A stretch of DNA of 64,000 nucleotides. It comes from Vicinamibacterales bacterium. Lineage in GTDB: Bacteria > Acidobacteriota > Vicinamibacteria > Vicinamibacterales > UBA8438. The stretch is from contig CBDCCN010000004.1 in NCBI GenBank assembly GCA_965214865.1, forward strand, positions 2,801,300-2,865,299. The letters run 5' to 3'. Shown one piece after another: positions 13,852 through 58,175 of the stretch (position 1 is the stretch's first letter; each line of letters opens with the position of its first letter). Under the pieces are notes generated by a model. That model had not been told where the DNA came from and did not search any database. It worked only from the letters and a program-made list of their open reading frames with translations. The position numbers were made by a program, and so were the translations under genes.

Positions 13852-13875
13852 ATCGCATTTGCAAGGAGCTTTCCC

Positions 13876-22737: not shown

Positions 22738-23700
22738 TCAGTAGATGGCCACCGGGGCGACGGTCGATCCGGTGGCGCCCTCGATCTTCAGCGGCTGCAC
22801 GACGAACGCGAACTCGTACACCCCGGCCGCGGCCAGCTCGTCGAGCCGCATCCGCTCCACCAGGTGGATGCCGTTGACCACCAGCATGATCTGGTGGATC
22901 GGCAACGAGAGCTCCGGGTCCGGGTTGGGCGAGACCTCGACCGGCTGGTTGTCGGCGCCCAGCAGCATCGGATCCCGTTCCACGAGCCACTGCGCCGCGG
23001 CTACGCCGATCCCCGGGTTGCCCGCCATGAAGCGCTCGGCGTCGGTATCCCAGAGCACGCCCCATCCGGTGTGGATCAGCACCGCGTCGCCCGGCTCCAA
23101 CCCCACGCCCTGCTGCTCCAGCGCCTGCTGCAGATCGTCCACCGTGATCTCGTACCGGTCGGGCAGCATGTCGACGCCCTTGAGCGCCGCCACGTCGATG
23201 AGCACGCCGCGCGTCATCAGCGTGCCGACGTTCTCGACGCCGAGCCGCGAGAACCCGCTCCGCGTCATGATCTCGTTCTGGTCGAAGCAGTTGTAGAGGC
23301 TGTCCCCGATGGTCTGGTGGGTGAACCCGTCGAACTGCGTGCCCACCTGGCCCATCTCGGTGACGACCAGCTCCTCGTTCGAGCCGCGGCGGTTGGAGCC
23401 GACGTTCATGCCGGTCGGCTTCATGTAGAGGTCGAAGTGCCGCGCGCCGAGCGGCATCGAGCTTCTCAGCACCTGGCCGAGCTCGACCACGCGTCCCGTC
23501 CGGATCAGGCGCGCCGCCCGGAGCACCGTGTCGGGGCCCATGTGGTTGGCGGCGCCCCGCTCGTCGCCGGCGCCCCACTTGCTGGGACAGCGCTCGTCGG
23601 GTGACGGCGGGGACCACGATTGGCCGGCGGTGGGGGTCGCCCCGACCAGTAGAACGGCGAACGAAGCAGCGGCGGCGACGGTGAAAGTGGCGGATCGCAT
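22738..23700 (-). CDS. cyclase-family protein with signal peptide, paralogue 2
   Basis: ATG at 23700 with GGAGGAAAGG upstream. Signal peptide is MRSATFTVAAAASFAVLLVGATPTAGQ. Contains MGQVGTQFDGFTHQ, GDAVLIHTGWG and a C-terminal FAFVVQPLKIEGATGSTVAPVAIY. Confidence 0.85.
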   Translation of the reverse strand: MRSATFTVAAAASFAVLLVGATPTAGQSWSPPSPDERCPSKWGAGDERGAANHMGPDTVLRAARLIRTGRVVELGQVLRSSMPLGARHFDLYMKPTGMNVGSNRRGSNEELVVTEMGQVGTQFDGFTHQTIGDSLYNCFDQNEIMTRSGFSRLGVENVGTLMTRGVLIDVAALKGVDMLPDRYEITVDDLQQALEQQGVGLEPGDAVLIHTGWGVLWDTDAERFMAGNPGIGVAAAQWLVERDPMLLGADNQPVEVSPNPDPELSLPIHQIMLVVNGIHLVERMRLDELAAAGVYEFAFVVQPLKIEGATGSTVAPVAIY

Positions 23701-28510: not shown

Positions 28511-28918
28511 GCGCCGTTCCCTCTGGTTGCGATAGTCCTTGTCCGTGAGACCGGTTCCTAGCGCGCGGAGCGGACCAGACGGACGGCCTGTCGGTCTTCC
28601 CGGTCGACCTCGGTCTCCTCGCACGCGGAGCGGACCAGGCCGGTATGTATACATGTCGGTCGTTGGCGCGCACCCGAACAGGGCCGCCGCCGACGTTCTC
28701 GATCCCGGTCGAGACGGGGCGGCCGCATCGACGCGCCGGCAACACCTGCCGGCTGCTCGCGGGGCGCGCGGTCCGGCCGTCGGGTCCGGTCTCGGCGCGG
28801 TGCAAGGGCCCCACGAATCGTGCGGTGCGGAAGCAGATTCGGTGCGAGAACGGATCACAGGCATCCTGCGGCGGGAAAGACTGGTTTCAGCGGGGGGGCG
28901 GAACGAAGCAACGGCGAA

Positions 28919-29808
28919 ATGACAGTGACGCGCTTGCAGATCGGGGCGCTGGAGGAGTCGGTCACGGTCACCCGGGAGTCGCCGCTGGTCGACCTGACCT
29001 CGACGCAGGTCGGCGGCAACGTCTCCCTGGAGGAACTGAAGGACCTGCCGTCGTCGAGCCGCAACTTCACCAGCTTCATCGCCCTGCTGCCCGGCGTGCA
29101 GTTGACGCCGTCGAGCAGCCCCAGCTCGTCCGGCGTCCGCATCAACGGCCAGGACCAGACCGGCATCGTGTTCATGCTGGACGGCGGGGCCGACAACGAC
29201 GACCTGCGCGGCGGGCAGTCGCAGGCGAAACCGGCCCTCGAGGCGGTCGCCGAGTTCCAGGTCGTCACCAACCAGATGGACGCGGAGTACGAGTCCGCCA
29301 CCTCCGGCGTCGTCAACGCCATCAGCAAGACGGGGACCAACGAGTTCCACGGCAGCGGGTTCGGCTTCTACACGAGCGGGGGCCTGACCGCGGAGGACTT
29401 CTTCGTCAGGCAGCAGGACCTCGAGAAGCCCGGTACATGAGCGGCACGCCGTTCACGATCCACGACAGCGACTTCGACCCGAACCGCAACGGCCTGTCCC
29501 CGGACCCGCTGCCGCCCGGCGCCTACAGCGGCACGGGGCAGAACGCGATCACGGTGGAGAACGAAGGCGGGCTCAGAGGCGCCTACGGGCCCGACTACTT
29601 CCAGCTCGACATGCGGATCGGCTACCGCTATCGGGGAGGGGGAGAGCAGACGGTCGACGTCTTCGGCGAGCTCTTCAACCTGACCAACCGGGTCAACTTC
29701 GTCAACCCGTCGGGTGACCGGCGGTCCGGCAACTTCCTCGTCCCGACCCAGCTTCTGGCCGGCGGTTATCCGCGCCAGTTCCAGGTCGGCATCCGGTACG
29801 GCTTCTGA
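28919..29808 (+). pseudogene. TonB-dependent receptor remnant (plug region + last beta-strands only)
   Basis: Plug-like N-terminal part: ESVTVTRESPLVDLTSTQVGGNV..LKDLPSSSRNF..LLPGV...RINGQD...MLDGGADND...AVAEFQVVTNQMDAEYESATSGVVNAISKTGTNEFHGSGFGFY. It stops at 29438-29440. The other frame continues to a typical TBDR C-terminus (VDVFGELFNLTNRVNFVNP...YPRQFQVGIRYGF). About 300 aa remain, compared with ~1000 aa in intact genes. Confidence 0.65.
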
Positions 29809-29891
29809 TCGATTTTCGGCGGAGGGAATGGACGGCGTCCGGCTCGCAGGCGACTGCGAGCCGGATCTTCTTCGACGTCGGGTCTCCTCAA

Positions 29892-32899: not shown

Positions 32900-33142
32900 A
32901 TGCGCCATTCAACTGTCGCGGCGTTGATCACGGCGGTTGCGGTCGTACTGGCGGCGGCGCCGGCCGCGGCCCAGGATGCGGACGCCGGCTGGACGCCCGC
33001 GCGGACGCCCTGGGGACATCCGGACCTGCAGGGGATCTGGGACCAGACCACCGGGACGCCGCCGGAACGGGCGGCCGAAGGGAACTGCGGCATGGAGGGC
33101 ATCCTCGCCGGCCATCGCGCCGAGGAGCAGGCGCTGCGATAG
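32900..33142 (+). pseudogene. in-frame internally deleted mini-copy (P8) of the PDLQG/WEGDTLV family
   Basis: AAGGAGA RBS followed by MRHSTVAALITAVAVVLAAAPAAAQDADAGWTPARTPWGHPDLQGIWDQTTGTPPER. This is joined directly to the family C-terminus (EGNCGMEGILAGHRAEEQALR; compare P6 ACHEGNLGMEGILAGGRAEDAEEAR). It is 80 aa, against 324-358 aa for the intact full-length copies. The ORF is open, so it may still be translated. Confidence 0.6.
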
Positions 33143-33150: not shown

Positions 33151-33486
33151 ATGCACGAGACGTACTATCACGCGGAGGATCTCGAACGCTTCGCGGAAAT
33201 CGGCAGGAACCGCCCCGAGCTGGCGGAAAAGTTTTTCGCATGGTACGAGGCGGTGTTCGAGGACGGGGCGCTGTCGGCGCGGGAGAAGTCGCTGATCGCC
33301 CTGGCCGTCGCGCACGCGGTGCAGTGTCCCTACTGCATAGACGCCTACAGCACCGACGCGCTGGAGAAGGGCGCCGACCTGGACCAGATGACCGAGGCGG
33401 TGCACGTGGCGTCGGCCATCCGCGGCGGCGCTTCGCTCGTCCACGGTGTGCAGATGCGCAACCACGCGAACCGGGTCGGCATGTGA
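33151..33486 (+). CDS. arsenosugar-biosynthesis-associated peroxidase-like protein (CMD/AhpD-like)
   Basis: 111 aa. The block EKSLIALAVAHAVQCPYCIDAYSTDALEKGADLDQMTEAVHVASAIRGGASLVHGVQMRN matches my memory of this conserved ArsS partner family. It starts 8 nt after P8. Confidence 0.8.
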   Translation: MHETYYHAEDLERFAEIGRNRPELAEKFFAWYEAVFEDGALSAREKSLIALAVAHAVQCPYCIDAYSTDALEKGADLDQMTEAVHVASAIRGGASLVHGVQMRNHANRVGM

Positions 33487-33586: not shown

Positions 33587-34636
33587 ATGGGCAGCACGCT
33601 CCCGTCGCTCGTTTCGCGGCAGCTCCCGCTGGCTTCGGCGCGCGAGCAGTTGGCGACGCTGCACCGCCTCCCTCTGGCGCGTGAGTTCGCGGAGGCGCTA
33701 GACGAGACCGGTCTGTATCCCCTGCGCCCGACCGGCATCGAGATCCTGCAGATCAACGTCGGCAAGCTCTGCAACCAGACCTGCGTGCACTGCCACGTCG
33801 ATGCGGGTCCGGATCGGCGGGAGATCATGACCCGCGAGACGATGGCGCAGTGCGTCGACGCCCTGAAGCGGACCGCGATAGCGACCGTCGACGTCACGGG
33901 CGGCGCCCCGGAGCTCAACCCGAACTTTCGCTGGCTCGTCGAGCGGTGCGCCGCGCTCGACCGCCACGTGATCGATCGCTGCAACCTCACCGTGCTCGGT
34001 CTGCCGTCGCAGGCGGACCTCGCGGAGTTCCTCGCCGAGCACCAGGTCGAGGTGGTCTGCTCGCTGCCGCACTACCGCCGGCTCAACACCGACAGGCAGC
34101 GGGGCGACGGCGTATTCGACAGGTCGATTGCAGGTCTTCGAAAGTTGAACGCGGTCGGCTACGGCGACGAATCGTCGGGGCTGCGCCTCGTGCTGGTGAC
34201 GAACCCGGTCGGGGCGTACCTGCCGGCGGGGCAGGCCTCACTGGAGCGGGAGTGGAAGTGCGAGCTCGACCGCCTGTACGGCATCCGGTTCAACGCGCTC
34301 CACACCATCACCAACATGCCGATCAGCCGCTTTCTGGAGTGGCTGGTCGACTCGTCCAACCTGGAACGCTACATGGAGCGGCTGGTTGCGAGCTACAACC
34401 CGGCCGCCGCGGGCGGGGTGATGTGCCGCAACACGCTGTCCGTCGGGTGGGACGGCGTGTTGTACGACTGCGACTTCAACCAGATGCTGGATCTGCCGGT
34501 GGAGCCGGGCGCCCCGCGCCACATCGCCGACTTCGACCTCGCCGCCCTCGAAGCGCGGTCGATCGTCGTCGACCGCCACTGCTTCGGCTGCACCGCCGGC
34601 GCCGGATCGAGCTGCTCGGGCGCCACCGTCGTGTAA
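33587..34636 (+). CDS. arsS: ArsS-type radical SAM / Cys-rich domain protein (arsenosugar biosynthesis family)
   Basis: Radical-SAM CxxxCxxC is in LQINVGKLCNQTCVHCHVDAGPDRRE. The middle block is TNMPISRFLEWL. The C-terminal Cys-rich tail is VMCRNTLSVGWDGVLYDCDFNQML...DRHCFGCTAGAGSSCSGA. There is no in-frame TGA, so this is the Cys form. Confidence 0.85.
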   Translation: MGSTLPSLVSRQLPLASAREQLATLHRLPLAREFAEALDETGLYPLRPTGIEILQINVGKLCNQTCVHCHVDAGPDRREIMTRETMAQCVDALKRTAIATVDVTGGAPELNPNFRWLVERCAALDRHVIDRCNLTVLGLPSQADLAEFLAEHQVEVVCSLPHYRRLNTDRQRGDGVFDRSIAGLRKLNAVGYGDESSGLRLVLVTNPVGAYLPAGQASLEREWKCELDRLYGIRFNALHTITNMPISRFLEWLVDSSNLERYMERLVASYNPAAAGGVMCRNTLSVGWDGVLYDCDFNQMLDLPVEPGAPRHIADFDLAALEARSIVVDRHCFGCTAGAGSSCSGATVV

Positions 34637-35932: not shown

Positions 35933-36328
35933 CTTTGCCCCTTTCCGATTTCGTCCGCCGTCCGAGTCTCACTGGTCAATCTACTGCCGCTCCGTGGCGG
36001 ATGGTGCTCACGACCGTCCGTGTTTCGGGCGCGATGCGTCCCGCTATCTTAGCGATGGAGCCGTCGCGCCCGCAACCGGCGCCGCTGGCGGGGTGCGATG
36101 GCGGCGGGAACCGCGCAGTTCCCATCGCAAGCGGCCGTCGGGGGACGCTGGACGTATAGAGCGGCCCCGCGCCGCGGGCGTGGGAGGTCTCCGGCCCGTC
36201 GACTGGCCCGCGCGACGTTGCGCCGAAGCGCAGGTTGCGGGAAGATGCACGGAGTGCGTGTGTCCGGGGGCGGACTTCAGTGCCGGTGCATCGGGGGACG
36301 GGTCCGTGCCCCGACGGAGGTGACCATC

Positions 36329-37321
36329 ATGCAGTCTCGACGTTTCGCGACCTTGTTGCTGGTGTTGGCAGTCGTGACCTGGACGGCGCCGCCTTCTTTC
36401 GGGCAGTCCGCGGGCTCTTGGGAGCTGCCGCGCACCCCGGACGGCCGGCCCGATCTGCAGGGGGTCTGGCTCAACAACGTGGCGACGCCGCTCGAACGGC
36501 TTCCGTCCCTGGCCGGCCGTTCGCATCTGACGCGGGAGGAAGTGGCGACGCTGACGGCGCGCGCCGAGCGCATCTTCGCCAACGGACGCAGCGCGTTCAC
36601 GACGCCCGAGGGCGCGTTCCGGGCGGCGCTGCAGAACGTCGAGACCTACATCGCGTGGTCGACCAGCAGCTCGATCGGGATGGTCGACGTGACGTTCACG
36701 GACCGGACGTCGCTCGTCGTCGACCCGCCGGACGGGCGGATACCCGCACTCACCCCGGCCGCCGAGGCGCGCGAGGCGGCGGTCGACCACGGCTGGGAGT
36801 TCAAGACCGGCCCGGAAGATCTCAACAGCATCCACCGCTGCATCACGACCGGGGTGCCGCGGCTCGGCGGCAACTTCGGCGCGGGACCGTACACCTTCTA
36901 CCAGATAGTCCAGACGCCCACTCATCTGGCCTTCATCAGCGAGGCGTTCCACGACGCGCGGATCATCCCGATCGGAGACCGGCCGCACCTGCCGGAGGAC
37001 GTCCGCCAGTGGAACGGGGATTCCCGCGGCCGCTGGGAGGGCGACACGCTGGTCGTGGAGACGACCAACTTCTCGCCCAAGAGCTACTACCGCGGCGCCG
37101 CCGACGGCCTGCACCTGGTGGAGCGGTTCACGCGCACCGGGCCGGACACGCTGGCCTACCGCGTGACGCTGACCGACCCCGGGACGTGGGCCTCGTCGTG
37201 GACGGCCGAGGCGCCGCTGCAGCGGCGCGACCAGCCAATCTACGAGTTCGCCTGCCACGAGGGCAACAAGTCGATCGTGGGGATGCTGCGGACCGCCCGG
37301 CTGGAAGACGCCGGCCGCTGA
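36329..37321 (+). CDS. PDLQG/WEGDTLV family, copy P2
   Basis: The ATG at 36329 follows GGAGGTGA. N-terminus is MQSRRFATLLLVLAVVTWTAPPSFGQ. Motifs: PRTPDGRPDLQGVW, TSLVVDPPDGRIPALTP, HRCI, YQIVQTPTHLAFISE, ARIIPIGDRPHLP, WNGDSRGRWEGDTLVVETTNF, ERFTR, YEFACHEGN. Confidence 0.85.
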   Translation: MQSRRFATLLLVLAVVTWTAPPSFGQSAGSWELPRTPDGRPDLQGVWLNNVATPLERLPSLAGRSHLTREEVATLTARAERIFANGRSAFTTPEGAFRAALQNVETYIAWSTSSSIGMVDVTFTDRTSLVVDPPDGRIPALTPAAEAREAAVDHGWEFKTGPEDLNSIHRCITTGVPRLGGNFGAGPYTFYQIVQTPTHLAFISEAFHDARIIPIGDRPHLPEDVRQWNGDSRGRWEGDTLVVETTNFSPKSYYRGAADGLHLVERFTRTGPDTLAYRVTLTDPGTWASSWTAEAPLQRRDQPIYEFACHEGNKSIVGMLRTARLEDAGR

Positions 37322-37390: not shown

Positions 37391-38032
37391 TCACGCACCC
37401 GATTCCGGGGCGTCGAAGACGGCGGATACGTCGGCGGCGAAGACTGCGAGCAGTGGCGACGTGGACACCCCGCCGCGACCGAACACACCGTGCTGGACAT
37501 ACGCACCCCCTTCGAGCGTGAGCACGGTGATCGTCTCGTTACGGGGGTCGGCGATCCAGTACTCCGGAATGCCTCCCTCGGCGTAGTCCGCGCGTTTCTC
37601 GACCAGATCCCGCTCCGGGGCGTCGGGGCTGACGACCTCGACCACCAGGTCCGCGCCCAGCCAGTAGCGGTCCTGGCGGCGGGGATCCGAGCGGTCGCGT
37701 AACATCAGCAGGTCCGGCTCGCGGAACTTGCCCTCGCGGATGCGCATGCGCAGCGCGGAGAACCTCACGATTCCGCCGCGCGGTTCGAGATGGTCGTGGA
37801 ACAGGCGGTAGAGGAACGCGAGGACGGCCTGATGCGTGTCGGTCGGCATGGGCAGTTCCTCGACGTGCCCGTCGGTAAACTCGATCAGGCGGCCGGTGTG
37901 ATCGGTGAGCCACAGGTAGGCATCGTCGCTCCAGGCTCCCTGGGACGGCAGGATGTCGCACAGCAGGGAGGCCAGGGCATTCCGGGGGGCCGGGGCGGTC
38001 GGCGCGGATTCGACGGTTGTCATGGCATTCAT
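37391..38032 (-). CDS. Uma2-family (DUF820) putative endonuclease
   Basis: ATG at 38032 (or 38023). Contains REPDLLMLRDR, ADLVVEVVSPDAPERDLVEKRADYAEGGIPEYWIADP. The N-terminal extension in the track ORF was rejected. Confidence 0.8.
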   Translation of the reverse strand: MNAMTTVESAPTAPAPRNALASLLCDILPSQGAWSDDAYLWLTDHTGRLIEFTDGHVEELPMPTDTHQAVLAFLYRLFHDHLEPRGGIVRFSALRMRIREGKFREPDLLMLRDRSDPRRQDRYWLGADLVVEVVSPDAPERDLVEKRADYAEGGIPEYWIADPRNETITVLTLEGGAYVQHGVFGRGGVSTSPLLAVFAADVSAVFDAPESGA

Positions 38033-38238
38033 CGTAGCGTGTTCAATGGCTTCAAGACTCCCGACGCGGCCCCGGGAGAGAGCTGCGCCTACCGGAAACC
38101 GCGGGTCCGGCCGGCCTTTATCCAGGGCGACTGAAGCGCGGGGGCTCGACGCGCCGGCAGCAAGCGCGGAACGCGGGCACGGTGCGCCATGAACGTCTCC
38201 CTGGAGTCGATAGCGCGTAATGCGGGCCGCGGACGGAA

Positions 38239-38276
38239 GAACGCCCGCGAGGGCCGGAGCGGCCCCGCGGGCGTTC
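38239..38276 (-). terminator. strong GC hairpin downstream of the P4-P3-DUF6152 operon
   Basis: GAACGCCCGCG-a-GGGCC-ggagc-GGCCC-CGCGGGCGTTC, 16 bp paired in total. It lies 16 nt beyond the stop at 38292. On the minus strand it is followed by TTCCGTCC. Confidence 0.5.
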
Positions 38277-38291
38277 AACGTGAGGAGAGAC

Positions 38292-38726
38292 CTACTCCGG
38301 CTCGGTCGGATCCCGGCCGTCGCGCGGGGCGCCGGTGCCGGACGATCCGGCGAAGAGCCGCGTCCCGTCGGGGAACGTCACGTCACGGCCGTTGGCGCGC
38401 AACGCGCCGTCGATCGCCTGGTAGCCCTCGACGAACACCTCGGTGCCCGGGGTGACCGAATCCCGGCGCCAGCCGCGGCGCACCAGGGCTCCCGGCGGGC
38501 CGGCCTCGATCATCCAGTTCTCGACCGTGCCGTCCTCCCTCGTCACCTCGAGATGCATCCAGGCGTGCGGGTTGATCCACTCCATCCTGGTGATCTTGCC
38601 CCGCAGCGCCACCGGCTTCGTCGCGTCGAACTCGGCCGAGAACGCATGATGCGCGAGCGCCGAGCCGCCCGCCACCAGGATGGCGAGCGCGATGCCCGCC
38701 AGGGTCGTTGCCAGTCTGTTCCGCAT
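38292..38726 (-). CDS. DUF6152-family secreted protein
   Basis: Signal peptide ends ...GGSALAHHAFSAEFDATKPVALRGKITRMEWINPHAWMHLEV...WMIEAGPPGALVRRGW. This matches my memory of the HHSF.AEFD...W.NPH pattern of DUF6152. Confidence 0.75.
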   Translation of the reverse strand: MRNRLATTLAGIALAILVAGGSALAHHAFSAEFDATKPVALRGKITRMEWINPHAWMHLEVTREDGTVENWMIEAGPPGALVRRGWRRDSVTPGTEVFVEGYQAIDGALRANGRDVTFPDGTRLFAGSSGTGAPRDGRDPTEPE

Positions 38727-38772
38727 CGGTGATACCTCGCTGTCGTGCTGTTGCGGGTGCGTGACGGCCGAT

Positions 38773-40536
38773 CTACCGGCCGGCCGCCTCCGCCGCCTCG
38801 CGGTCGCGCGCCCGCGCGCCGCTCAGGATGTTGAACATGCCGTAGTTGCCCTCGTGACAGGCGTACTCGACCAGCTCGTACTGCTCGTCGTCCATGTCGA
38901 ACGTGAAGCGGCCGGTGAAGGGCGCGGTCCACACGACCGGGTCGTCCACCGTGAACTGATACTCGAGCCGCGTCGGGCTGATCCGCGTGAACCGCTCGGT
39001 CAGTATCATGTCGGGACTCGACCCGCGGTACGATGCCCGGCCGTTGAAGTTGGTCGTCTCGACCACCAGCGTGTCGCCGTCCCAGCGGCCCTGCGGGCTG
39101 CCGAGCCACGAGGTCAGCAGGGGGCCGTCCTTCGGTCGCGGGGCCGTCGGAATCACCCGCGTCTCGTGGATCATCTCCTTCTGGATCGCGACGAAACCGG
39201 GTCCCTGGTAGATCTGCAGGCCGTTGTTGTAGACCCCCGGGAACATCAGCCCCGGCAGCCCGCGCGTGATGCACCGGACGTACGGCGTCGCCTCCTCCGG
39301 ACCGGCGATGTTGCTGGTGGTGTAGCGGGCGCGGTCGCGCGCCACCGCCGCCGCCCGGCGCTCGCCTTCCGGCGTCAACGCGGGGATCCGGCCGTCGGGC
39401 GGGTCGATGATCATCGCCACCTGCGTGGAAGGCGCGTTCTTGTCGTAGCCGAGGGTGGTGTCGCGCCACTCCCGCTCGTAGCCCCAGATGCTGCCGAGGG
39501 TGCCGCGCTCGCGGCGCGCCGCCGCCTGCTCCGGCGTCAACGTCTCGAGATCGGCCACGTCGTCCGGGCGCTCCAGCGGGATGCCGTGCGAGGCGTTGCC
39601 GGTCCAGACGCCCTGCAGATCGGGCTCGTCCCAGGGGGTGCGGGGCGTGTCGTAGGGTTCGGTCACGTCGGCGAACACCGGCGCCGTGCCGGTCGCGTCC
39701 ACACCCGCGAAGCCGGTCTCGACGAGCGCCAGCCGCACGTTGTCGGGCCCGTAGATGAAGGCCCGCGGCACCGCCGCGCGGGCGTTCTCCGGTACCACCG
39801 GATCTTCCTGGAACTCGACCCCGGCCTCGCGCAGCTCGGCCGCGGCTGCTTCGAGGTCGTCGACGACGAAGCCGATGTGGTCGACGGCGCGGCCCTCGGT
39901 GGTGGCCGGCGTGCCCTCCCCGTGCTCGGAGGCGAAGAGCCAGACGCTCTCGAACCGCAGGCCCTCCTCCTGGCCCGCGTGTACGGCCCGCTCACCGCCG
40001 AGCATCTGCCGGTACCAACCGAGGGTCTCCTCGGGGTCGGTCGCGCTCAGGTGGATGTGGTGGAAGCCGAGGTGCTCCCGGTCCTCCAGCAGCTCGATCC
40101 GCGTGCCCCACGGGTCGAAGATGTAGCCGTGCAGGTAGCCGCCCGGGGCCTCCCGCAGCGTTGCGCCGCCGGGGAAGCGCTGCAGCCGCACGCCGGAGCC
40201 GCGGACGCCGACCGCCTCGAGATCGGCCATCTTCGCCGTCACGTCGGGGAAGGAGAACCCGATGTGGTTGACGCCGGTTCCCTGCGTGCTGCCGATCGTC
40301 GGCTGCGGGACGAAGGTCACCTCCATGCCGTGACAGTCGGCGGTGTCGTTGCGGTCGGCGACCGCCTCGCAGTCGAGGTGGCGCGAGTACCAGCGCACCG
40401 ACTCGGGCGGCGCGGGCGAGGTGATCTGGACGTGGTGGTAGTCGGCGTCCGCCGCCCGGACTTCGTCCGGCGCCGCACCGACGAGCACTCCCACGGCGAG
40501 GAGCGCAAGCGCAACGCGTGTCGATTTCAGTGTCAT
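38773..40536 (-). CDS. fusion protein: signal peptide + two VOC/glyoxalase-type domains + PDLQG/WEGDTLV family domain (copy P3)
   Basis: ATG at 40536 with GGAGGAA upstream (MTLKSTRVALALLAVGVLVGA). VOC modules: YHHVQI...VNHIGFSFPD...IFDPWGTRIELLE and FHHIHLSATD...VDHIGFVVDD...YGPDNVRLALVE. Then PRTPWDEPDLQGVW, IIDPPDGRIPALTPEG, VRCI, YNNGLQIYQGPGFVAI, TRVIPT, WLGSPQGRWDGDTLVVETTNF, ERFTR, VEYACHEGN. The 878-aa track ORF runs through the upstream gene and was split. Confidence 0.85.
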   Translation of the reverse strand: MTLKSTRVALALLAVGVLVGAAPDEVRAADADYHHVQITSPAPPESVRWYSRHLDCEAVADRNDTADCHGMEVTFVPQPTIGSTQGTGVNHIGFSFPDVTAKMADLEAVGVRGSGVRLQRFPGGATLREAPGGYLHGYIFDPWGTRIELLEDREHLGFHHIHLSATDPEETLGWYRQMLGGERAVHAGQEEGLRFESVWLFASEHGEGTPATTEGRAVDHIGFVVDDLEAAAAELREAGVEFQEDPVVPENARAAVPRAFIYGPDNVRLALVETGFAGVDATGTAPVFADVTEPYDTPRTPWDEPDLQGVWTGNASHGIPLERPDDVADLETLTPEQAAARRERGTLGSIWGYEREWRDTTLGYDKNAPSTQVAMIIDPPDGRIPALTPEGERRAAAVARDRARYTTSNIAGPEEATPYVRCITRGLPGLMFPGVYNNGLQIYQGPGFVAIQKEMIHETRVIPTAPRPKDGPLLTSWLGSPQGRWDGDTLVVETTNFNGRASYRGSSPDMILTERFTRISPTRLEYQFTVDDPVVWTAPFTGRFTFDMDDEQYELVEYACHEGNYGMFNILSGARARDREAAEAAGR

Positions 40537-40568
40537 GACGCGATTCCTCCGCGGTCCGATCGACCGCT

Positions 40569-41393
40569 CTAACGGGTCGGCTCCCTGCGCAGATGCCCGT
40601 ACAGGAGATCCTCCGAGTACTCGACGCACTTGAATTCCAGCACCCGCGCATTCTCCTCCAGCCGCCGGTACAGCAGCAGGCTGATGTCCCACGGCCGGGT
40701 GAACACGGTGGGATCCTCGATGGTGGCCTCGTAGCGGATCACGTTGGGTCCGAGCGGCGTGTAGCGCTCCTGCACCCGCAACGCGCTGCTGGCGAAGTTG
40801 CCGGCGCGGTCGAACCACGCCTCGCCGTTGAAGCCCTCGGCGTCGACGACGAGCGTGTCGCCCTCCCACCGGCCGTGCGAGCGGCCCATCCAGCTGTCGA
40901 TGGGCGCCGGCTCCGGATTTTCCTTGTCCATGTGGACGGTCCGGTTCGCCTCCGCGAAGCCGTAGATCATCAGGATCTTGCGGTCGCCCTGGATGATCCG
41001 GAACGGGTAGGGCATGTAGTTGGCGCGCGGCACCCCCGGCATGAAGCACTTCGCCTCCGGATCCGCGCTCATGCGGTTCGCGAAGTTCTCGTCCCGCTGC
41101 TGCCGCGCCGCGGCCTGGTAGGGGATCTCGTCCCCGACGACCACGCCCTGGCCGGGCGGGATCGCGCCGATCGCGCCGAGGTCGGGATGCCCGGGGCCGG
41201 AGGGATGATCCTCGAGGTTCCAGTTCGCCGAGCTCATCGTCTGCCAGACGCCGTTCAGGTCCGGCCGGTCGTCCCAGGCGCGCGGGACGTCGCCGCTCTG
41301 CGCGAACGACGGGGCGGCTGCGAGCGCCAGGACCACGGCGGCCAGCCCGGCGCAGATGCGGACGAGGTGCGAAGCGGGATGCGTTTTCGTCAT
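40569..41393 (-). CDS. short divergent member of the PDLQG/WEGDTLV family (copy P4)
   Basis: ATG at 41393 (MTKTHPASHLVRICAGLAAVVLALAAAPSFAQ). Motifs: PRAWDDRPDLNGVW, KCFMPGVPR, FRIIQGDRKILMIYGF, NRTVHMD, WMGRSHGRWEGDTLVVDAEGFN, ERYT. The C-terminus is LEFKCVEYSED instead of YACHEGN. The SD is weak. Confidence 0.8.
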   Translation of the reverse strand: MTKTHPASHLVRICAGLAAVVLALAAAPSFAQSGDVPRAWDDRPDLNGVWQTMSSANWNLEDHPSGPGHPDLGAIGAIPPGQGVVVGDEIPYQAAARQQRDENFANRMSADPEAKCFMPGVPRANYMPYPFRIIQGDRKILMIYGFAEANRTVHMDKENPEPAPIDSWMGRSHGRWEGDTLVVDAEGFNGEAWFDRAGNFASSALRVQERYTPLGPNVIRYEATIEDPTVFTRPWDISLLLYRRLEENARVLEFKCVEYSEDLLYGHLRREPTR

Positions 41394-41676
41394 GTGCGGA
41401 GCCACTCATTCACAAAGGGACGCGGTGCGCTGCGAAGCGCGCGAACACGGTGTGCCGGCGCGATGGCGGGCGTGACCTGATTCGAACCGGCGATCTCTGC
41501 GCTGACAACGCAGCGTCTTGACCACTTGACCACACGCCCGGAACTCGTCGCTGTACCCCCCTCGTTCGGCCGCGCGGCAGCCGTCGGGGCCATGGTCCGA
41601 TAATGATACCAGCGACGGCGTCCGACGGCGAAGGTGTGCCGGCGCCGGTTTGCTCGCGGCGTTCGGGACCGCGGTT

Positions 41677-43038
41677 ATGATGCGCAGGATGGCGTCGATG
41701 CAGGTGGCTGCGGCGTTCGTCTCGAGTCGCGGGTGGCGCCGGAGGCGCGTCGCCCCGGTTCTGGTCGGCGCCGCGGTCGTGCTCGGCGCAGCCTGTTCCG
41801 CCGGGTCCGGCGGGAGCGGGGACCCGCGGGAGGAGGCCGTCGATGCGCCGCGCGATGCGGAGCGGCCGAACATCGTCTGGATCGTGGCGGATGCGGTCGG
41901 CGCGTCCCACGTCGAGAGCTTCGGCGGAGCCCGCACGGTGACCGCCGAGACCGCCGCCGTCGCGTCCGACCCGGCGTCGGCGCGCGCAGCGTTGCTGACC
42001 GGCGTGCGCCCGGCGGCGCTCGGTCTCGACGCGGTGACGGGCCGGCTCGCCGCCCCGCCGCCCGCCGGGGTCACGGTCCTGCCGGAGCAGCTCCGGCGGG
42101 CCGGCTACTACACCAGCCGCGCCGGGGCGCCGCGCCACAATCTGGCGTCCGGCGAAACACGACCCGTCGACATCGTGCACGTTGACGGCGGGGTGCACGA
42201 TGCCGCGCGCGCCCTGCCGGTCCCCGTCGAGGACCTCGCGCAGCCGGGCCTGCTGGGCGCCTGGGACGCGGCCGGTCCCGGCGCCGGCTGGCGCGGACGG
42301 GAGAAGGACTGGGAGTCTCCCTGCACGGTGTCGTTCGGCTGCGGCGGGGCGCGCCGCCCGGGCGTGCGTCCGTTCTTCGCGCTGTTCAACGTCGACGCGG
42401 GCGGCGCCGGCCGGGGGCAGGCTCTCGAGGAACGGGTTGCGCGCATCGTCGACGCGCTGAAGGCTGACGATCTGCTGGAAGACACGGTCGTGTTCCTGAT
42501 CGGCGCGAGCGGCCCGACGCCGACCGTGGCCGTGCGCTGGCCCGCACGCCTCGCCGACGCCGTCGAGCCGGACGGCCCGGTCAGCCTGCTGGACCTCGCT
42601 CCGACCGCGCTGGCGCTGGCGGGTGTCCCGGCGCCCGCGTACATGGAGGGCCGTGCGCTGGTCGGTTCGGGCCCGCCGGTTGCGCCGCCGGCGTCCGCTC
42701 CGACCGCGGCGCGGCGCAACGTTGCCGCGCCGCGCCGCGCGGCAGCGCAGGACGGCGCAGGCATGGACTCCGCGGCATCGACGCCGGGCACGCCTCCGGC
42801 CGCCGCCACCCCGGGCGGCTACCCGACCGGCGGCCTGTTCCACGTCGCACCGCGCGTCGAGCTCCGGTGCGACACCGAAGGGGCGGCCATCGTCTACACC
42901 ACCGAGCGCGAGGCGCCGTTCTACTGGCGGCTGTACACGGGGCCGTTCCGGATGCGCTTCTGGACGCTGCGGTTCCAGTGCGGGCGCCTCGGGTACCGCG
43001 ACAGCGACATCGTGACGTTCGACTTCGACATCGAATGA
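41677..43038 (+). CDS. sulfatase-fold lipoprotein with degenerate catalytic motifs plus a chitobiase/hexosaminidase-C-like terminal domain
   Basis: The first ATG is at 41677 (the track ORF starts at TTG 41650). Lipobox is VVLGAACS. It is colinear with sulfatases (PNIVWIVADA, ARAALLTGVRP, LRRAGYYT, PFFALFN, DTVVFLIGASG, VRWPARL, SLLDLAPTALALAGVP). However, the CxPxR site, the DD/DN metal ligands and the K/H residues are substituted. The C-terminus is VELRCDTEGAAIVYTTE...YTGPF. Confidence 0.65.
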   Translation: MMRRMASMQVAAAFVSSRGWRRRRVAPVLVGAAVVLGAACSAGSGGSGDPREEAVDAPRDAERPNIVWIVADAVGASHVESFGGARTVTAETAAVASDPASARAALLTGVRPAALGLDAVTGRLAAPPPAGVTVLPEQLRRAGYYTSRAGAPRHNLASGETRPVDIVHVDGGVHDAARALPVPVEDLAQPGLLGAWDAAGPGAGWRGREKDWESPCTVSFGCGGARRPGVRPFFALFNVDAGGAGRGQALEERVARIVDALKADDLLEDTVVFLIGASGPTPTVAVRWPARLADAVEPDGPVSLLDLAPTALALAGVPAPAYMEGRALVGSGPPVAPPASAPTAARRNVAAPRRAAAQDGAGMDSAASTPGTPPAAATPGGYPTGGLFHVAPRVELRCDTEGAAIVYTTEREAPFYWRLYTGPFRMRFWTLRFQCGRLGYRDSDIVTFDFDIE

Positions 43039-43226: not shown

Positions 43227-44303
43227 ATGAGGCGGAGACACGTCCTGCTCGGAGCGGCGGTCGCAACGGCGGCGGCGATGACGATGGCGCCGGTCCCGGC
43301 GTCCGGTCAGTCGGCGGACGAGTGGTCGATGCCCCGAACTCCCTGGGGCCACCCGGACCTGCAGGGCTACTGGACGAGCTCGACCTACACGCCGCTGGAG
43401 CGGCCCGACAACCTCGGCGACCGGGCGTTTCTCTCGGAGGAGGAGCTCGCCGCGGCGAACGAGATCCTGACCGCCGAGGGAGTCGATCCGCTGCGTGCGC
43501 GCAGTTTCCTGGCCGGCGCGACCGAAGAGGAGCGGCTCGAACGGACGCGGCAGACGCAGGAGAACATCCACTACGACAACTCGATCTGGCTGCGCGAGAA
43601 TCGGCCGCGGCAGCTCACGACCCGGCGCACGTCGCTGATCGTGGACCCGCAGAACGGCAAGATCCCGCCGCTCATCCCGTCCGCGCAGGAGCGCGAGGCG
43701 CTGCGGCGGGCCGAGAGCCGCTGGCTGGTCTACAACATCTCGCCGCAGTCCTTCGACAGCCACCAGACCCGGACGCTGCAGGAGCGCTGCCTGGTGTGGC
43801 GCCACGAGGGGCCGCCGATGCTGCCCCCCTCCTACAACGACCTGATGCAGATCCTGCAGACCGAGGACTACGTGGTCGTCATGCAGGAGATGCGGGAGAA
43901 CGACGCGCGGATCATTCCCCTCGACGGCCGGCCGCACCTGCCGCCGGGCATGCGGGAATGGTCGGGCGACTCGCGGGGCCGGTGGGAGGGCGACACCCTG
44001 GTGGTCGAGTCCATCAACTTCAGCGAGAAGGTGCACTTCAACGGCTCGAGCACCGGGCTGCACGTCGTCGAGCGCTTCACGCGGGTCGACGACGAGAACA
44101 TCCGCTACGAGTTCACCGTCACCGATCCGACCACCTGGGCGCGGCCCTGGAGCGTCGAGTATCCGCTGATGCAGCGGGAAGGGCCGCTCTACGAGTACGC
44201 CTGCCACGAGGGCAATCACGACGCCAGGCACATCCTGGAAGTGGCGCGGAACCTCGACCGGGCGGCGGCCGCCGAGGCGTCCGCGGCCGGCGAGTCCAGG
44301 TAG
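43227..44303 (+). CDS. PDLQG/WEGDTLV family, copy P5
   Basis: GGAGGG RBS. N-terminus is MRRRHVLLGAAVATAAAMTMAPVPASGQ. Motifs: PRTPWGHPDLQGYW, TSLIVDPQNGKIPPLIP, ERCL, YNDLMQILQTEDYVVVMQE, ARIIPLDGRPHLP, WSGDSRGRWEGDTLVVESINF, ERFTR, YEYACHEGN. Confidence 0.9.
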   Translation: MRRRHVLLGAAVATAAAMTMAPVPASGQSADEWSMPRTPWGHPDLQGYWTSSTYTPLERPDNLGDRAFLSEEELAAANEILTAEGVDPLRARSFLAGATEEERLERTRQTQENIHYDNSIWLRENRPRQLTTRRTSLIVDPQNGKIPPLIPSAQEREALRRAESRWLVYNISPQSFDSHQTRTLQERCLVWRHEGPPMLPPSYNDLMQILQTEDYVVVMQEMRENDARIIPLDGRPHLPPGMREWSGDSRGRWEGDTLVVESINFSEKVHFNGSSTGLHVVERFTRVDDENIRYEFTVTDPTTWARPWSVEYPLMQREGPLYEYACHEGNHDARHILEVARNLDRAAAAEASAAGESR

Positions 44304-44335
44304 ACGAGTCCAAGTAGTAGAGGAAGGGAAGTGTG

Positions 44336-45949
44336 ATGCGCACCCAACGGACCGCGGTCGTTCTGTGCAGCGCCCTCGTCCTCTCGGCGTGCGGGGCGGG
44401 CGACGCCGATGCTCCCGGCGGCGAGCGGCTCGGGCCGGTCGTCGAGACCGGCCCGGGAACCCTCGAAGGGGAGCATGCCGCGGGCGACGACGGGGTGCTC
44501 GTGTTCCGGGGCGTGCCGTACGCCGAGCCGCCGGTGGGGGACGCCCGCTGGCGCGCTCCGGCGGCGAAGGCGTCGTGGGAGGCCGCGCGGTCGGCCACCA
44601 CCTTCGGACCGGCCTGCTGGCAGCGGCTCACGCCGGAATCCTCCATCTACACCCGCGGCGAACTGGACCGCAACGAGGACTGCCTCTACCTCAACGTCTG
44701 GACCGCGGCGACGGACGCGGCCGAGGCGCGGCCGGTGATGGTCTGGTTCCACGGCGGCGGGCATACCGGCGGCTGGGGCAGCGCGAAGGTCTTCGACGGC
44801 ACGGCGCTGGCGAAGAAGGGCGTCGTGCTCGTCACCATCAACTACCGGCTCGGGCCGTTCGGCTTCCTGGCCCACCCGGCGCTGACCGCGGAATCGCCGC
44901 ACGCAGCGTCCGGCAACTACGGCCTGCTCGACAAGGTGGCGGCCCTGGAGTGGGTGCGCGACAACGTCGCGGCCTTCGGCGGCGACCCCGGCAACGTGAC
45001 CATCTTCGGGCAGTCGGCCGGCTCGTGGAGCGTCTGCTACCTGATGGCGTCGCCGCTGGCGGCCGGCCTGTTCCACAAGGCCATCGGCCACTCGGGGGGC
45101 TGCTTCCGCGGCGGCCGGCCCGACCTGCCGGCGGCGCACGAGGCGGGTCTGACGGCTGCCGCCGCCCTCGGCGCGGAGGGCGGCGGAGCCGATGCGCTCG
45201 CGGCGTTGCGGGCGCTGGACGCCGAGGCGGTGCTCGACTCCGATCTCGGATCGGGCGCCATCGTCGACGGCTGGTTCATGCCGCGGCCGGCCCGCGCGAT
45301 CTTCGAGGCCGGCGAGCACAACGACGTGCCGGTCATCGTCGGCGCGCTGGCGAACGAGGGGACGACCCTGTACGCGAACATGCCGGAGCGGACCGCGGCG
45401 GAGCTGGCGTCCATGCTGCGCGAGCAGTACGGCGACCACGCCGACGCGCTGGCGGCAGCCTACGAGCCGGAGGTCGAGAAGTCGACGAAGTGGGGCGCGC
45501 AGGCGATCCAGGCCGACCGCAGCTTCGTCTGGGAGATGCGTACCTGGGCCCGCGCGGTGGAGGCGGCCGGCAACGCCGCGTATCTCTATTTCTTCAGCCA
45601 GGCGCCGCCGGTGTTCCGGATCTACGTCCCGGAGCGCGCCGTCATCGACATGCCCGACGGGCCGGACGGTTACGGCGCGTACCACTCCGGCGACCTCGCC
45701 TATGCCTTCGGCAACACCGGGCCGGTGGGGATAAACTGGACCGAGTGGGATCACGAGATAGCGCGCGCGATGTCGCAGTACTGGGTGAACTTCGCGCGCA
45801 CGGGAGATCCGAACGGCGACGGGCTCGCGACGTGGCCGCGCTACGAGGCCGCGGCCGACGAATGGCTGGAGTTCGGCTCCGACATCAAGACCACGCGCGA
45901 AGTGCGCAAGGAGAAGCTGGATCTGTTCGATCTCGTCAATGCGCCGTAG
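44336..45949 (+). CDS. type-B carboxylesterase lipoprotein
   Basis: The ATG at 44336 follows AGGAAGGGAA. Lipobox is LVLSAC. Motifs: FRGVPYAEPPVG, EDCLYLNVW, VMVWFHGGG, NYRLGPFGF, GNYGLLD, VTIFGQSAGS. It starts 32 nt after P5. Confidence 0.9.
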   Translation: MRTQRTAVVLCSALVLSACGAGDADAPGGERLGPVVETGPGTLEGEHAAGDDGVLVFRGVPYAEPPVGDARWRAPAAKASWEAARSATTFGPACWQRLTPESSIYTRGELDRNEDCLYLNVWTAATDAAEARPVMVWFHGGGHTGGWGSAKVFDGTALAKKGVVLVTINYRLGPFGFLAHPALTAESPHAASGNYGLLDKVAALEWVRDNVAAFGGDPGNVTIFGQSAGSWSVCYLMASPLAAGLFHKAIGHSGGCFRGGRPDLPAAHEAGLTAAAALGAEGGGADALAALRALDAEAVLDSDLGSGAIVDGWFMPRPARAIFEAGEHNDVPVIVGALANEGTTLYANMPERTAAELASMLREQYGDHADALAAAYEPEVEKSTKWGAQAIQADRSFVWEMRTWARAVEAAGNAAYLYFFSQAPPVFRIYVPERAVIDMPDGPDGYGAYHSGDLAYAFGNTGPVGINWTEWDHEIARAMSQYWVNFARTGDPNGDGLATWPRYEAAADEWLEFGSDIKTTREVRKEKLDLFDLVNAP

Positions 45950-49848: not shown

Positions 49849-50823
49849 TTACCGGGCTTCTTCCGCGTCCTCGGCCCGGCCGCCCGCGAGAATGCCCTCC
49901 ATCCCGAGGTTGCCCTCGTGGCAGGCGTACTCGTACATCACCTCGGACGAGAGGCTGAACGGGTAGGCGACCGTCCAGGACCGCGTGTACATCTGCGGAT
50001 CGTGGACCTCCACCTCGTACTCGAGCGTCCCGGGGCCGACGCGGGTGAACCGCTCGACGAGCATCATGTCCTCACCGGAGCCGTCGCGCGAGTTGAAGGC
50101 CGACCAGGGTTGCAGCGCGCTCACCCGGTGATCGAGATTCGTGGTCACGACCACGAGCGTGTCGCCCTCCCAGTGGCCGCGCGAGTCGCCGTTCCACTGG
50201 CCGATGTCGTCCGCCAGCGGCGGGCGTCCGTCGAGCGGCACCACGCGCACCTCGTGCACCTGCTCCAGCAGCATCACGACGTGGTCCGGCGTCTGGAAGA
50301 CCTGCATGTTGTTGTTGTAGGAGCGCGGGAACATGGCGTTGGGCATCCCGCCGCGGGTCACGCAGCGCTCCCAGATGTGCCGGTCCTCCCACGTGTCATC
50401 GCCGCGCGGCTGGCTGATGCGGGCCTTCTGTCCCTCCGGGGTCAGCGGCGGGAAGCGGCCGTTCGGCGGATCGACCAGCATCGACGTGCGGTTCGTCCGG
50501 GCGCCGCGCTCCATCCAGAAGTTGTTGTAGGCGCCCACGTTGCCCCCGGCGGCGGTGCGCCGGGCGTCGGCGAGCAGGAGCTGCTGGTTGCGCTCCTCGG
50601 TCGCGCGCCGAATCTGCGCGACCTCCTCGTCGCTCAGGGTCGCGCGGCCCTGGTGCTCGTCCGGCCGCTCCATCGGCGTGGCCCCGGACGAGCTCCAGAT
50701 GCCCTGCAGGTCCGGGTGGCCCCACGGGGTGCGGTAATCGTCCGCCGACTGGGCGGCCGCCATGCCCGGTACAACCAGCACCAGAACGGGAATCGCGAGA
50801 AGATGGAACCGTCGAGCACTCAT
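49849..50823 (-). CDS. PDLQG/WEGDTLV family, copy P6
   Basis: ATG at 50823 with AAGGAGG upstream. N-terminus is MSARRFHLLAIPVLVLVVPGMAAAQ. Motifs: YRTPWGHPDLQGIW, TSMLVDPPNGRFPPLTPEG, ERCV, YNNNMQVFQTPDHVVML, VRVVPLDGRPPL, WNGDSRGHWEGDTLVVVTTNL, ERFTR, YEYACHEGN. Confidence 0.9.
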   Translation of the reverse strand: MSARRFHLLAIPVLVLVVPGMAAAQSADDYRTPWGHPDLQGIWSSSGATPMERPDEHQGRATLSDEEVAQIRRATEERNQQLLLADARRTAAGGNVGAYNNFWMERGARTNRTSMLVDPPNGRFPPLTPEGQKARISQPRGDDTWEDRHIWERCVTRGGMPNAMFPRSYNNNMQVFQTPDHVVMLLEQVHEVRVVPLDGRPPLADDIGQWNGDSRGHWEGDTLVVVTTNLDHRVSALQPWSAFNSRDGSGEDMMLVERFTRVGPGTLEYEVEVHDPQMYTRSWTVAYPFSLSSEVMYEYACHEGNLGMEGILAGGRAEDAEEAR

Positions 50824-51110: not shown

Positions 51111-52118
51111 ATGAAGACATGGTCGACCGGCATGCTCGTCGTCGGCGCCCTGGCGGTGGCTCTCGCCCTGGCGGGGCGGCCTCCGGCGTCGGCCCGGGAA
51201 TCGTCCGCGCCCCCGCTCGTGAGCCAGGAGCAGTTCGACCGCTGGCTCGTCGAGCTCTCCAACTGGGGCCGCTGGGGACCGGACGACGAGCTGGGCGCGT
51301 TCAATCTCATCACGCCGGCCCGGCGCGCCGCGGCGGCGGCGCTGGTCACCGAGGGCTTCACGGTGTCGCTGGCGTCGAACGCCCAGAACTACGAGAGCGC
51401 CGACGTGCCCTGCCCGGTCGAGTGGGAGATGGTGCGCGCCACGCGCCGGGGGGCCAGCGACCGGATCGCCTACCCGTGCATCCACGGTCCCGGCACCACG
51501 CACCTGGATGCGTTCGCCCACGTGTTCTTCGACGGCAAGATGTGGAACGGGTACGACGTCGACGGGCTGGTGACGATGGGCGGCGGCGCCGCCAAGAACT
51601 CCATCATGACCATGAAGAACGGCATCGTCACGCGCGGCGTCCTCTACGACATCCCGCGCCTGAAAGGCGTGCCCTGGTTGGAGCCGGGAACGCGCATCAC
51701 GGTCGAGGACCTGGAGGCGTGGGAGGAGATGGCCGGCGTGAAGGCCGGTCCCGGCGATGCCTTCCTCATTCGCTGGGGGCGCTGGGCCCGGCAGGACGCA
51801 CTCGGCCCGTTCGACACCGGCCTCGAGGCGGCCGGCCTCGACAACAACGTGATCCCGTGGCTGAAGGAGCGTGACGTGGCGGTGGCGGGTTGGGAGACGC
51901 CCGGCTATGCGCCGCAGCCGGAAGGTGACCTCCCGCGCACCGCGCTGCACAACTTCGCGCTGACGATTCTCGGGATCCAGGTGCTCGACCGCGCGGACTT
52001 CCAGGCCCTGGCCAACGCCGCGGCGGAACGCAACCGCTGGGAGTTCATGGTGACCATCGCGCCGCTGCCGATTCCGAACGGCACCGGCTCGCCGGTCAAC
52101 CCCATCGCCATGTTCTGA
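51111..52118 (+). CDS. cyclase-family protein with signal peptide, paralogue 3
   Basis: GAGGAGGGG RBS. Signal peptide is MKTWSTGMLVVGALAVALALAG. Contains SNWGRWGPDDELGAFNLITPARRAAAAALVTEG, IHGPGTTHLDAFAHVF, GDAFLIRWGRW and a C-terminal MVTIAPLPIPNGTGSPVNPIAMF. Confidence 0.9.
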   Translation: MKTWSTGMLVVGALAVALALAGRPPASARESSAPPLVSQEQFDRWLVELSNWGRWGPDDELGAFNLITPARRAAAAALVTEGFTVSLASNAQNYESADVPCPVEWEMVRATRRGASDRIAYPCIHGPGTTHLDAFAHVFFDGKMWNGYDVDGLVTMGGGAAKNSIMTMKNGIVTRGVLYDIPRLKGVPWLEPGTRITVEDLEAWEEMAGVKAGPGDAFLIRWGRWARQDALGPFDTGLEAAGLDNNVIPWLKERDVAVAGWETPGYAPQPEGDLPRTALHNFALTILGIQVLDRADFQALANAAAERNRWEFMVTIAPLPIPNGTGSPVNPIAMF

Positions 52119-57810: not shown

Positions 57811-58175
57811 CCGTCATGATAGCGCCGTGCGGATCTCGATCCAACCATTTTCGCGCCGTCAATCGGACATTTCTCACCCGCGAGAGGAGCGCTTCATGGC
57901 ATCCGGACTCAATCGCCGTCGGCTCGTGACGTTTGTGGGCTCGACGCACGGGGACGTTACGCCGGCGGGTCCCTGTACGCGGGTGACACGAGCCGCTACG
58001 CCGTGTGCACGGAGAACGGCGCCGAGCTGCTGCCCCTCGAGCCGCTGCTCGACGGGCCCCCGCGGGACTGAACGCCGGCGCGCAGAAGGCCACGCGGGCC
58101 GAGTGCGGGCGGCGGCGCTGCCGAAAGACGGGAGCTCGTCGGTCGCCGCGTCGCGTACCTCGATCGCGAGCGGCT

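Follow-up and report, generated by a model that had tools for sequence, protein, structure and literature searches.

A widespread P4–DUF6152 gene pair and an optional VOC-domain fusion in a Vicinamibacterales genome

We have analysed a 64 kb stretch of DNA (the window), which agrees with a contig from a metagenome-assembled genome, has a GC content of ~70% and encodes proteins whose nearest relatives are labelled Vicinamibacterales (Acidobacteriota). A cassette of three genes on its minus strand encodes, in order, P4, a short exported member of an unnamed family recognised by its PDL(Q/N)G and WEGDTLV motifs; P3, in which two VOC/glyoxalase domains precede a full domain of the same family; and a DUF6152 protein (Table 1). 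Comparison with other genomes and metagenomes identifies the P4-type gene and DUF6152 as the constant core of this cassette, with the VOC-bearing long family member as an optional middle gene. The core pair is also found fused into a single chain. We suggest, with a probability of about 0.4, that the cassette is a periplasmic, metal-dependent module that handles a small molecule.

The core pair, the fusions and the operon

The survey of gene order took one genome per species with a relative of the DUF6152 protein, and the best 80 of 460 loci were annotated with home-made profiles. A P4-type gene accompanies DUF6152 in 76 of these 80 loci, which is the main link and one that a preliminary description of this DNA had missed. 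The arrangement of the window, P4 – VOC::family – DUF6152, is found in 43 loci; a family member without VOC domains stands between P4 and DUF6152 in 12, P4 lies directly ahead of DUF6152 in 19 and follows it in two. Three loci run off their contig or are unclear for other reasons, and one has no partner. The VOC fusion is judged optional because P4 and DUF6152 are constant while the VOC gene is present in only 43 loci (it is missing from 33 of the 76); it is an insertion belonging to one broad lineage. The loci come from Vicinamibacterales, Bryobacterales, Thermoanaerobaculia (Candidatus Multivoraceae), Holophagales and Gammaproteobacteria, including Candidatus Rariloculus, and thus reach three classes of Acidobacteriota and the Gammaproteobacteria. 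The order P4–fusion–DUF6152 was also seen in four further contigs at 67–70% identity; in one relative P4 overlaps the fusion gene by 4 nt, and in another a second fusion gene follows DUF6152. Two VOC::family genes per cluster, one on either side of DUF6152, were observed in L005 (3746–5467 and 6001–7749), L020, L021, L023, L025 and L026, and L025 has an additional, degenerate third copy whose VOC part is broken (2913–4248).

Single open reading frames (ORFs) with a signal peptide, DUF6152, a linker and a P4-like domain were identified in L071 (two), L029 and L030. A metagenome scan with the L029 protein gave 572 relatives, and among the best 80 loci, which were inspected, both domains lie in one ORF in 79, mostly from soil or rhizosphere. 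Because DUF6152 and the P4-type protein are separate in the window and in the 76 genome loci, and fused in L029, L030, L071 and the 79 metagenome loci, they constitute a Rosetta-stone pair. The preliminary description had applied the Rosetta-stone argument to the VOC domains and the family; a separate, adjacent VOC gene was found in none of the 43 VOC-carrying loci, and the argument is not supported for that combination. It had further taken the VOC fusion to be the only functional hint for the family in the window, which the frequent pairing and fusion of P4-type proteins with DUF6152 contradicts. Both the pairing and the fusion appear not to have been described before, and our literature search for DUF6152, PF19649 and the family motifs found no mention of them.

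The soil metagenome loci often hold arrays of further DUF6152 and P4-like genes. Examples in L155 (3815–6995), L159 (1802–5793) and L160 (1220–5124) run as a DUF6152::P4-like fusion, two DUF6152 genes and one or two P4-like genes, and such arrays are often headed by a small ORF of 130–170 residues without a Pfam match. Pfam scans of the genes around the soil fusions revealed no conserved or informative partner; the neighbours are small uncharacterised ORFs, weak DUF1080-like hits, a single RraA-like protein and a single TonB-type outer-membrane barrel.

The fusion within P3 is genuine and conserved, as the preliminary description had supposed. A search of a 5.8-billion-protein set for other proteins of this architecture found more than 120 clusters at 90% identity (a lower bound), all of them full-length, 576–603 residues long, 65–100% identical to P3 and with glyoxalase Pfam hits; the National Center for Biotechnology Information (NCBI) labels such proteins only as ‘VOC family protein’. 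The VOC part is contiguous with the family domain in 43 of the 43 VOC-carrying genome loci. Independent contigs from two DNA runs (X1 record 4 at 39595–40556 and X2 record 18 at 39149–40617) pass through the VOC/family and P4/P3 junctions with 0–2 differences to the window. A frameshift or chimeric assembly that merged a separate VOC gene with a family gene, for which the origin of the window in a metagenome-assembled genome is the sole formal ground, is therefore excluded by the clusters of identical architecture, the contiguous loci and the agreement of the read-derived contigs.

Gene coordinates, strand, the gaps of 32 nt (P4/P3) and 46 nt (P3/DUF6152) and all quoted motifs read as first described. 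The hairpin downstream of DUF6152 lies exactly where it had been placed, and its stem, previously given as 16 bp, counts 17 pairs with one bulge; the 71-nt fold has an energy of −41.5 kcal/mol (z = −4.3 versus shuffles). It probably marks the end of the cassette transcript. A consensus promoter/terminator scan, a method ill-suited to a genome of 70% GC, found no promoter and did not call the hairpin because a U-tract is absent. The tRNA-Asp gene upstream of P4 limits the room for a promoter. A marine metatranscriptome contig of 2121 nt, from a relative ~89–92% identical, covers 39466–41315 and hence the P4/P3 junction; a second of 462 nt, from the same relative, covers 38413–38869 and the P3/DUF6152 junction. 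Taken with the short gaps and the hairpin, these contigs support a single transcription unit, and the operon originally proposed gains further support from the order kept in 43 of 80 genomes and from the 4-nt overlap in a relative. P4, P3 and DUF6152 all have signal peptides, with cleavage sites read by eye. These comparisons show a three-gene cassette that is conserved and transcribed, and whose products are predicted to be exported.

Table 1. Features of the cassette, family paralogs in the window and DUF6152::P4 fusions in other loci
Feature	Position	Strand	Description
P4	40569–41393	−	274 residues from ATG; ORF and gene call; exported short member of the unnamed PDL(Q/N)G / WEGDTLV family
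P3	38773–40536	−	587 residues; signal peptide, two VOC/glyoxalase domains and full unnamed-family domain
P3 signal peptide	40453–40536	−	Residues 1–28, ...EVRA/AD; cleavage site judged by eye
P3 VOC domain 1	40081–40449	−	Residues ~30–152; Pfam Glyoxalase; predicted local distance difference test (pLDDT) mostly 80–95 in AlphaFold2 (AF2) model
P3 VOC domain 2	39715–40071	−	Residues ~156–274; Pfam Glyoxalase, best stretch 158–269
P3 flexible linker, VOC to family domain	39649–39714	−	Residues 275–296; pLDDT <50 at 285–291; variable in alignment
P3 family domain, long type	38776–39648	−	Residues 297–587; PRTPWDEPDLQGVW motif, helical insert, eight-strand antiparallel β region, CHEGN, C-terminal helix; family profile hit
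DUF6152 protein	38292–38726	−	144 residues; Pfam PF19649, E = 3.5e-33; signal peptide, His-His, NPH, GSSGTGAP tail
GC-rich hairpin	38239–38276	−	RNA fold; 16 nt past the DUF6152 stop codon
tRNA-Asp(GTC)	41464–41539	−	ARAGORN; 70 nt upstream of P4, same strand
Long-type paralogs	21636–22649(+), 36323–37321(+), 43227–44303(+), 49849–50823(−), 58520–59578(−)		Five full-length; 35–43% identity to P3 domain
DUF6152::P4 fusion	L071:8194–9240		Pfam DUF6152 E = 4e-21, residues 16–106; BLASTP to P4 E = 6e-8, residues 187–321
DUF6152::P4 fusion	L071:10727–11749		
DUF6152::P4 fusion	L029:1766–2884		Counterpart in L030

Domains of the three proteins

The translation of P3 contains the motifs HHVQI/HIGFSF/DPWGTRIELLE and HHIHL/HIGFVV/GPDNVRLALVE of the two VOC domains, followed by PRTPWDEPDLQGVW and GRWDGDTLVVETTNF. 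It scores 64 bits against Pfam Glyoxalase PF00903 (cut-off 20.6, E = 2.2e-17) in two stretches, and the AF2 model has a VOC fold with pLDDT mostly 80–95 over residues 30–275; the signal region, modelled with a helix at residues 6–19, stays at pLDDT <50. Foldseek with the full model returned only VOC proteins. The best matches (E 3e-12 to 2e-9, template modelling (TM) score ~0.6 on target) are two-domain VOC enzymes: glyoxalase I from Zea mays (5d7z/6bnz), human GLOD4, the Bacillus MhqO-like proteins 3oaj/1zsw and the hydroquinone dioxygenase PcpA (4huz). P3 shares with these four β-α-β-β-β modules per chain and, judging from its sequence, has conserved His and Glu residues, candidate ligands, at the expected metal-site spacing. 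It differs in its signal peptide, which marks it for export, in its low identity (12–17%) and in the C-terminal domain of 290 residues, which the two-domain enzymes do not have; two-domain superpositions with the structural matches give a root-mean-square deviation of ~19 Å. P3 also stays below the cut-offs for glyoxalase I (TIGR00068, 32.7 bits, cut-off 120), FosA (29.1 bits, cut-off 250), methylmalonyl-CoA epimerase, HPPD and the type I extradiol enzyme catechol 2,3-dioxygenase (TIGR03211, 15.5 bits, cut-off 320.2). The VOC part of P3 is thus a member of the VOC superfamily without assignable chemistry, which cannot be named because every curated cut-off for a named VOC family failed. The scaffold had been described earlier as of the glyoxalase or extradiol dioxygenase type; Pfam and Foldseek agree on the superfamily, and the cut-offs for both of these enzyme types failed.

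Conservation among 120 homologues points to one complete His/Glu/His/Glu candidate set of metal ligands and one partial set. In VOC domain 1 the candidates are H35 (117/120), E72 (117/120), H91 (120/120) and E148 (119/120), with a spacing that, by the numbering of Escherichia coli GlxI and as a lead only, resembles the glyoxalase I-type pattern. C56 and C68 of this domain are each invariant (120/120) and, like the Cys pair of the family domain, speak for export of the protein. In VOC domain 2, where residues 157–241 align with residues 4–87 of FosA and also with 2p25, H159, H220 and E273 are invariant (120/120 each), H162 is kept in 119 and H160 in 115, with Q in the remaining five. Here the candidate ligands are H160/H162, H220 and E273; a conserved Glu at the position equivalent to E72 was not found in the 120 homologues.

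Neither P4 nor the 290 residues at the C-terminus of P3 have a Pfam or NCBIfam match, and a family profile built on seven full copies from the window gave nothing usable against sequences in the PDB. At 50% identity, the same profile finds 28,429 representatives below an E-value of 1e-3 or equal to it and 15,691 at E ≤ 1e-10, nearly all of them stand-alone proteins of 310–370 residues that their sources name only ‘hypothetical protein’. P4 is 28–30% identical to the family and shares its invariant columns, and as a short-type member it is without the helical insert and CHEGN motif that mark the long type. Across the whole family, P4 included, two Cys residues are invariant and would fit a disulfide in an exported protein. 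Motif scans count eight family copies in the window (P4 and five other full stand-alone genes, the domain in P3 and a remnant), which is a strong local expansion of the family.

Since Foldseek with full P3 gave VOC proteins only, the family domain was modelled on its own by AF2 (88 sequences; pLDDT 79, predicted TM score 0.79). The PRTPWG-PDLQG-W N-terminal segment is packed at high confidence in this model, followed by the helical insert, an uninterrupted series of eight antiparallel strands and, at the C-terminus, a long helix. As had been remarked before, the PRTPW..PDLQG motif is retained although it has become internal in P3, and it is modelled within the domain fold. The PDB matches found by Foldseek are FABP4, CRBP1, tardigrade SAHS and streptavidin, all weak (E 2.5e-3 at best, TM ~0.5 on target), and the predicted β-barrel may therefore be described as weakly calycin-like. 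It would share with FABP, CRBP, SAHS and streptavidin an up-and-down antiparallel β region of ~130 residues, and a Pfam Lipocalin_5 domain is joined to one member of the family. It differs from these binders in its weak scores and the lack of sequence similarity, and it adds the PRTPWG-PDLQG-W segment, the helical insert, the two invariant Cys residues and the long C-terminal helix.

Several further observations concern family members. Single representatives that appear to carry extra domains (P0275, P0342 and P0353) comprise a protein of 714 residues with a squalene-hopene-cyclase-like N-terminus, one of 440 residues that ends in a Lipocalin_5 domain (E = 2e-23) and one of 545 residues with a methyltransferase-like C-terminus. 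Long-type paralogs in the window adjoin exported enzymes, namely two PF04199 ‘putative cyclase’ proteins of the cyclase/formamidase type with signal peptides at 22738–23700(−) and 51111–52118(+); a third PF04199 gene lies at 1618–2805. A lipoprotein-type carboxylesterase (44333–45949(+)) starts ~30 nt past the stop of the paralog 43227–44303, and a longer ORF upstream starts 17 nt past it. The remnant at 32900–33142 (+) is an ORF of 80 residues with an internal deletion, in which the signal peptide and PARTPWGHPDLQGIW motif run straight into the EGNxGMEGILAG...RAEE tail of the C-terminus. Its end lies 8 nt ahead of a CMD-family gene (33151–33486), which is followed by a radical-SAM/DUF3641 gene (33587–34636).

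The third protein of the cassette is a clear member of Pfam DUF6152 (PF19649; 114 bits, cut-off 27), an entry that gives no function. Its orthologs are 58–94% identical and conserve the GSSGTGAP tail, and its invariant columns are H25, H26, E31, D33, E48, W49, N51, P52, H53, W55 and H57. The translation around the cleavage site reads ...SALA/HHAFSAEFD, so that the two His residues directly follow an AxA-type signal-peptidase site and a His would be the first mature residue (cleavage read by eye). Of 241 distinct domains, the distant fused ones included, 240 have the HH pair, and in 234 it stands exactly 26 residues ahead of NPH. Histidine-brace periplasmic copper proteins include CopC, the CuB site of PmoB and LPMOs. 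The mature N-terminal His of DUF6152, together with further invariant His residues, recalls such histidine-brace or His-rich periplasmic metal sites, by analogy; DUF6152 differs from them in having two adjacent N-terminal His residues rather than one and in matching no solved structure by sequence.

Surroundings of the cassette

Directly downstream of the hairpin lies a gene for a Uma2-family putative endonuclease (PF05685, E = 3.8e-32; 37391–38140, minus strand); neither this gene nor tRNA-Asp is kept at the same position in the other genomes. On the far side of the tRNA, the divergent gene at 41650–43038 (+) encodes a sulfatase-like protein of 462 residues, whose match to Sulfatase is weak and confined to the N-terminal part (30 bits, residues 73–155). 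It was considered as a partner of the cassette and rejected, because only the two closest genomes carry it and the bona fide sulfatases at the equivalent position in L003 and L004 are different, non-orthologous proteins.

Elsewhere, the window encodes ankyrin-repeat proteins (13687–15369(+) and 56365–57813(−)) and, at 6004–13775, PSD/PSCyt (DUF1592/1588/1585/1587/1595) and DUF1552 genes arranged as two divergent pairs. The DNA and RNA runs with window sequence are largely marine or sponge metagenomes, which, taken with these ankyrin proteins and gene pairs, suggests the genome of a sponge-associated symbiont. Pieces of a TonB-dependent receptor (Plug, OMP_b-brl_4) at 28562–29821 (+) are called as two short genes, and this receptor gene may be disrupted.

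Possible function of the cassette

That the family should act on a small molecule in the periplasm, or deliver one there, is plausible because all three proteins have signal peptides, the barrel has a weak likeness to FABP, CRBP and streptavidin, family members are fused to Lipocalin_5, cyclase-like and methyltransferase-like domains, and paralogs stand beside exported hydrolases. We suggest that the family β-barrel would bind a small molecule in the periplasm, which would probably be hydrophobic or aromatic. In P3, a long-type family member that in this lineage has gained two N-terminal VOC domains and lies as a third gene between P4 and DUF6152, the tethered VOC domains may convert the ligand of the barrel in a reaction dependent on a divalent metal, such as isomerisation, ring cleavage or addition. 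The use of metal by the VOC part is proposed because H35, E72, H91, E148, H220 and E273 are each kept in at least 117 of 120 homologues. In DUF6152, the N-terminal His-His and the histidine of NPH would be the metal-binding residues; the protein would work in physical contact with the P4-type protein and could form the metal/redox centre of the pair or supply it with metal.

Several observations weigh against this proposal. DUF6152 has no relative by sequence in the PDB. The calycin-like resemblance of the barrel is weak (E ~2.5e-3 at best, TM ~0.5, ~130 columns). NCBIfam places P3 in no family above cut-off, its VOC part being below every curated one, and the candidate VOC ligands are assigned from spacing and from the alignment to FosA and 2p25. 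The flanking genes vary between the genomes compared and point to no pathway. The 80 genome loci are those closest to this DUF6152, so that their linkage rate may not extend to the whole Pfam family, and the RNA evidence consists of assembled contigs from a relative, in which DNA carry-over is possible.

The invariant mature N-terminal HH and NPH histidine of DUF6152 could also be expected of a protein that carries metal for its own sake. The cassette might then serve periplasmic metal trafficking or buffering, with DUF6152 as a Cu/Zn/Ni metallochaperone, a ZinT-like barrel, the VOC domains as metal-holding scaffolds and the metal ion itself as the ligand; the many invariant acidic residues and two Cys of the family domain, the conserved His/Glu sets of the VOC domains and the lack of conserved catabolic pathway genes around the cassette would all agree. 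We consider this unlikely, as no gene for a metal transporter, P-type ATPase, RND or ZnuABC-type system was found beside the cassette in the loci examined, eight paralogs in 64 kb and ~28,000 representatives at 50% identity would be unusual for metallochaperones, and neither ZinT nor other metal-binding calycins are among the top 50 Foldseek matches.

The top structural matches of the barrel are fatty-acid- and retinol-binding proteins, every part of the cassette is exported, and signal peptides of lipoprotein type occur in some of the P4-like relatives (‘LLAACG’ in L071:9740–10591, for instance). These features would suit the handling of envelope lipids or lipoproteins, in which the barrel would carry lipids or acyl chains through the periplasm in the manner of LolA, LppX or FABP, DUF6152 would be an OB-like adaptor and the VOC domains a lineage-specific addition. 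This is improbable in our view: the structural similarity is weak, the invariant His-His and NPH have no obvious part in lipid carriage, and the heavy expansion of paralogs and their soluble-hydrolase neighbours agree better with a range of substrates than with a single housekeeping pathway. About as little credence is given to a non-catalytic role in sequestration or detoxification, with P3 binding a toxic natural product in the periplasm as the bleomycin-resistance VOC proteins do, its family domain serving as another binding module, and P4 and DUF6152 as unrelated neighbours. The VOC superfamily does include pure binding proteins (from the Pfam family name and general knowledge), and the apparent sponge or marine microbiome origin is rich in natural products; however, the candidate metal ligands are almost invariant, which a binding-only VOC protein would not need, and P4 and DUF6152 are clearly not incidental, as 76 of the 80 loci link them and other loci carry them fused.

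If the metal-dependent small-molecule module is taken further, a more specific proposal can be made, though one that we hold only tentatively and as rather less likely than the module itself. The P4-type protein and DUF6152 might together be a widespread, undescribed two-component periplasmic metalloprotein, encoded by adjacent genes or as one fused chain, in which an N-terminal His-His/NPH metal centre on DUF6152 would act on a ligand held by the barrel. The family would then be a new class of exported barrels, either presenting substrates or catalytic, that combine with varied enzyme partners (VOC domains in P3, and cyclases or esterases elsewhere in the window).

Nothing in these results overturns current understanding. 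The VOC::family protein is a variant of the known VOC superfamily, and its parts are already in databases as ‘VOC family protein’, ‘hypothetical protein’ or DUF. For the family itself we found no Pfam or NCBIfam model, solved structure or literature match, and it is now anchored by two independent recurrent fusions, one to a VOC scaffold and the other, far commoner, to DUF6152, whose invariant N-terminal His-His is a further handle on it. If its function were found, annotation would follow for tens of thousands of proteins now labelled hypothetical, which occur in Acidobacteriota from soil and sponges as well as in Gammaproteobacteria.

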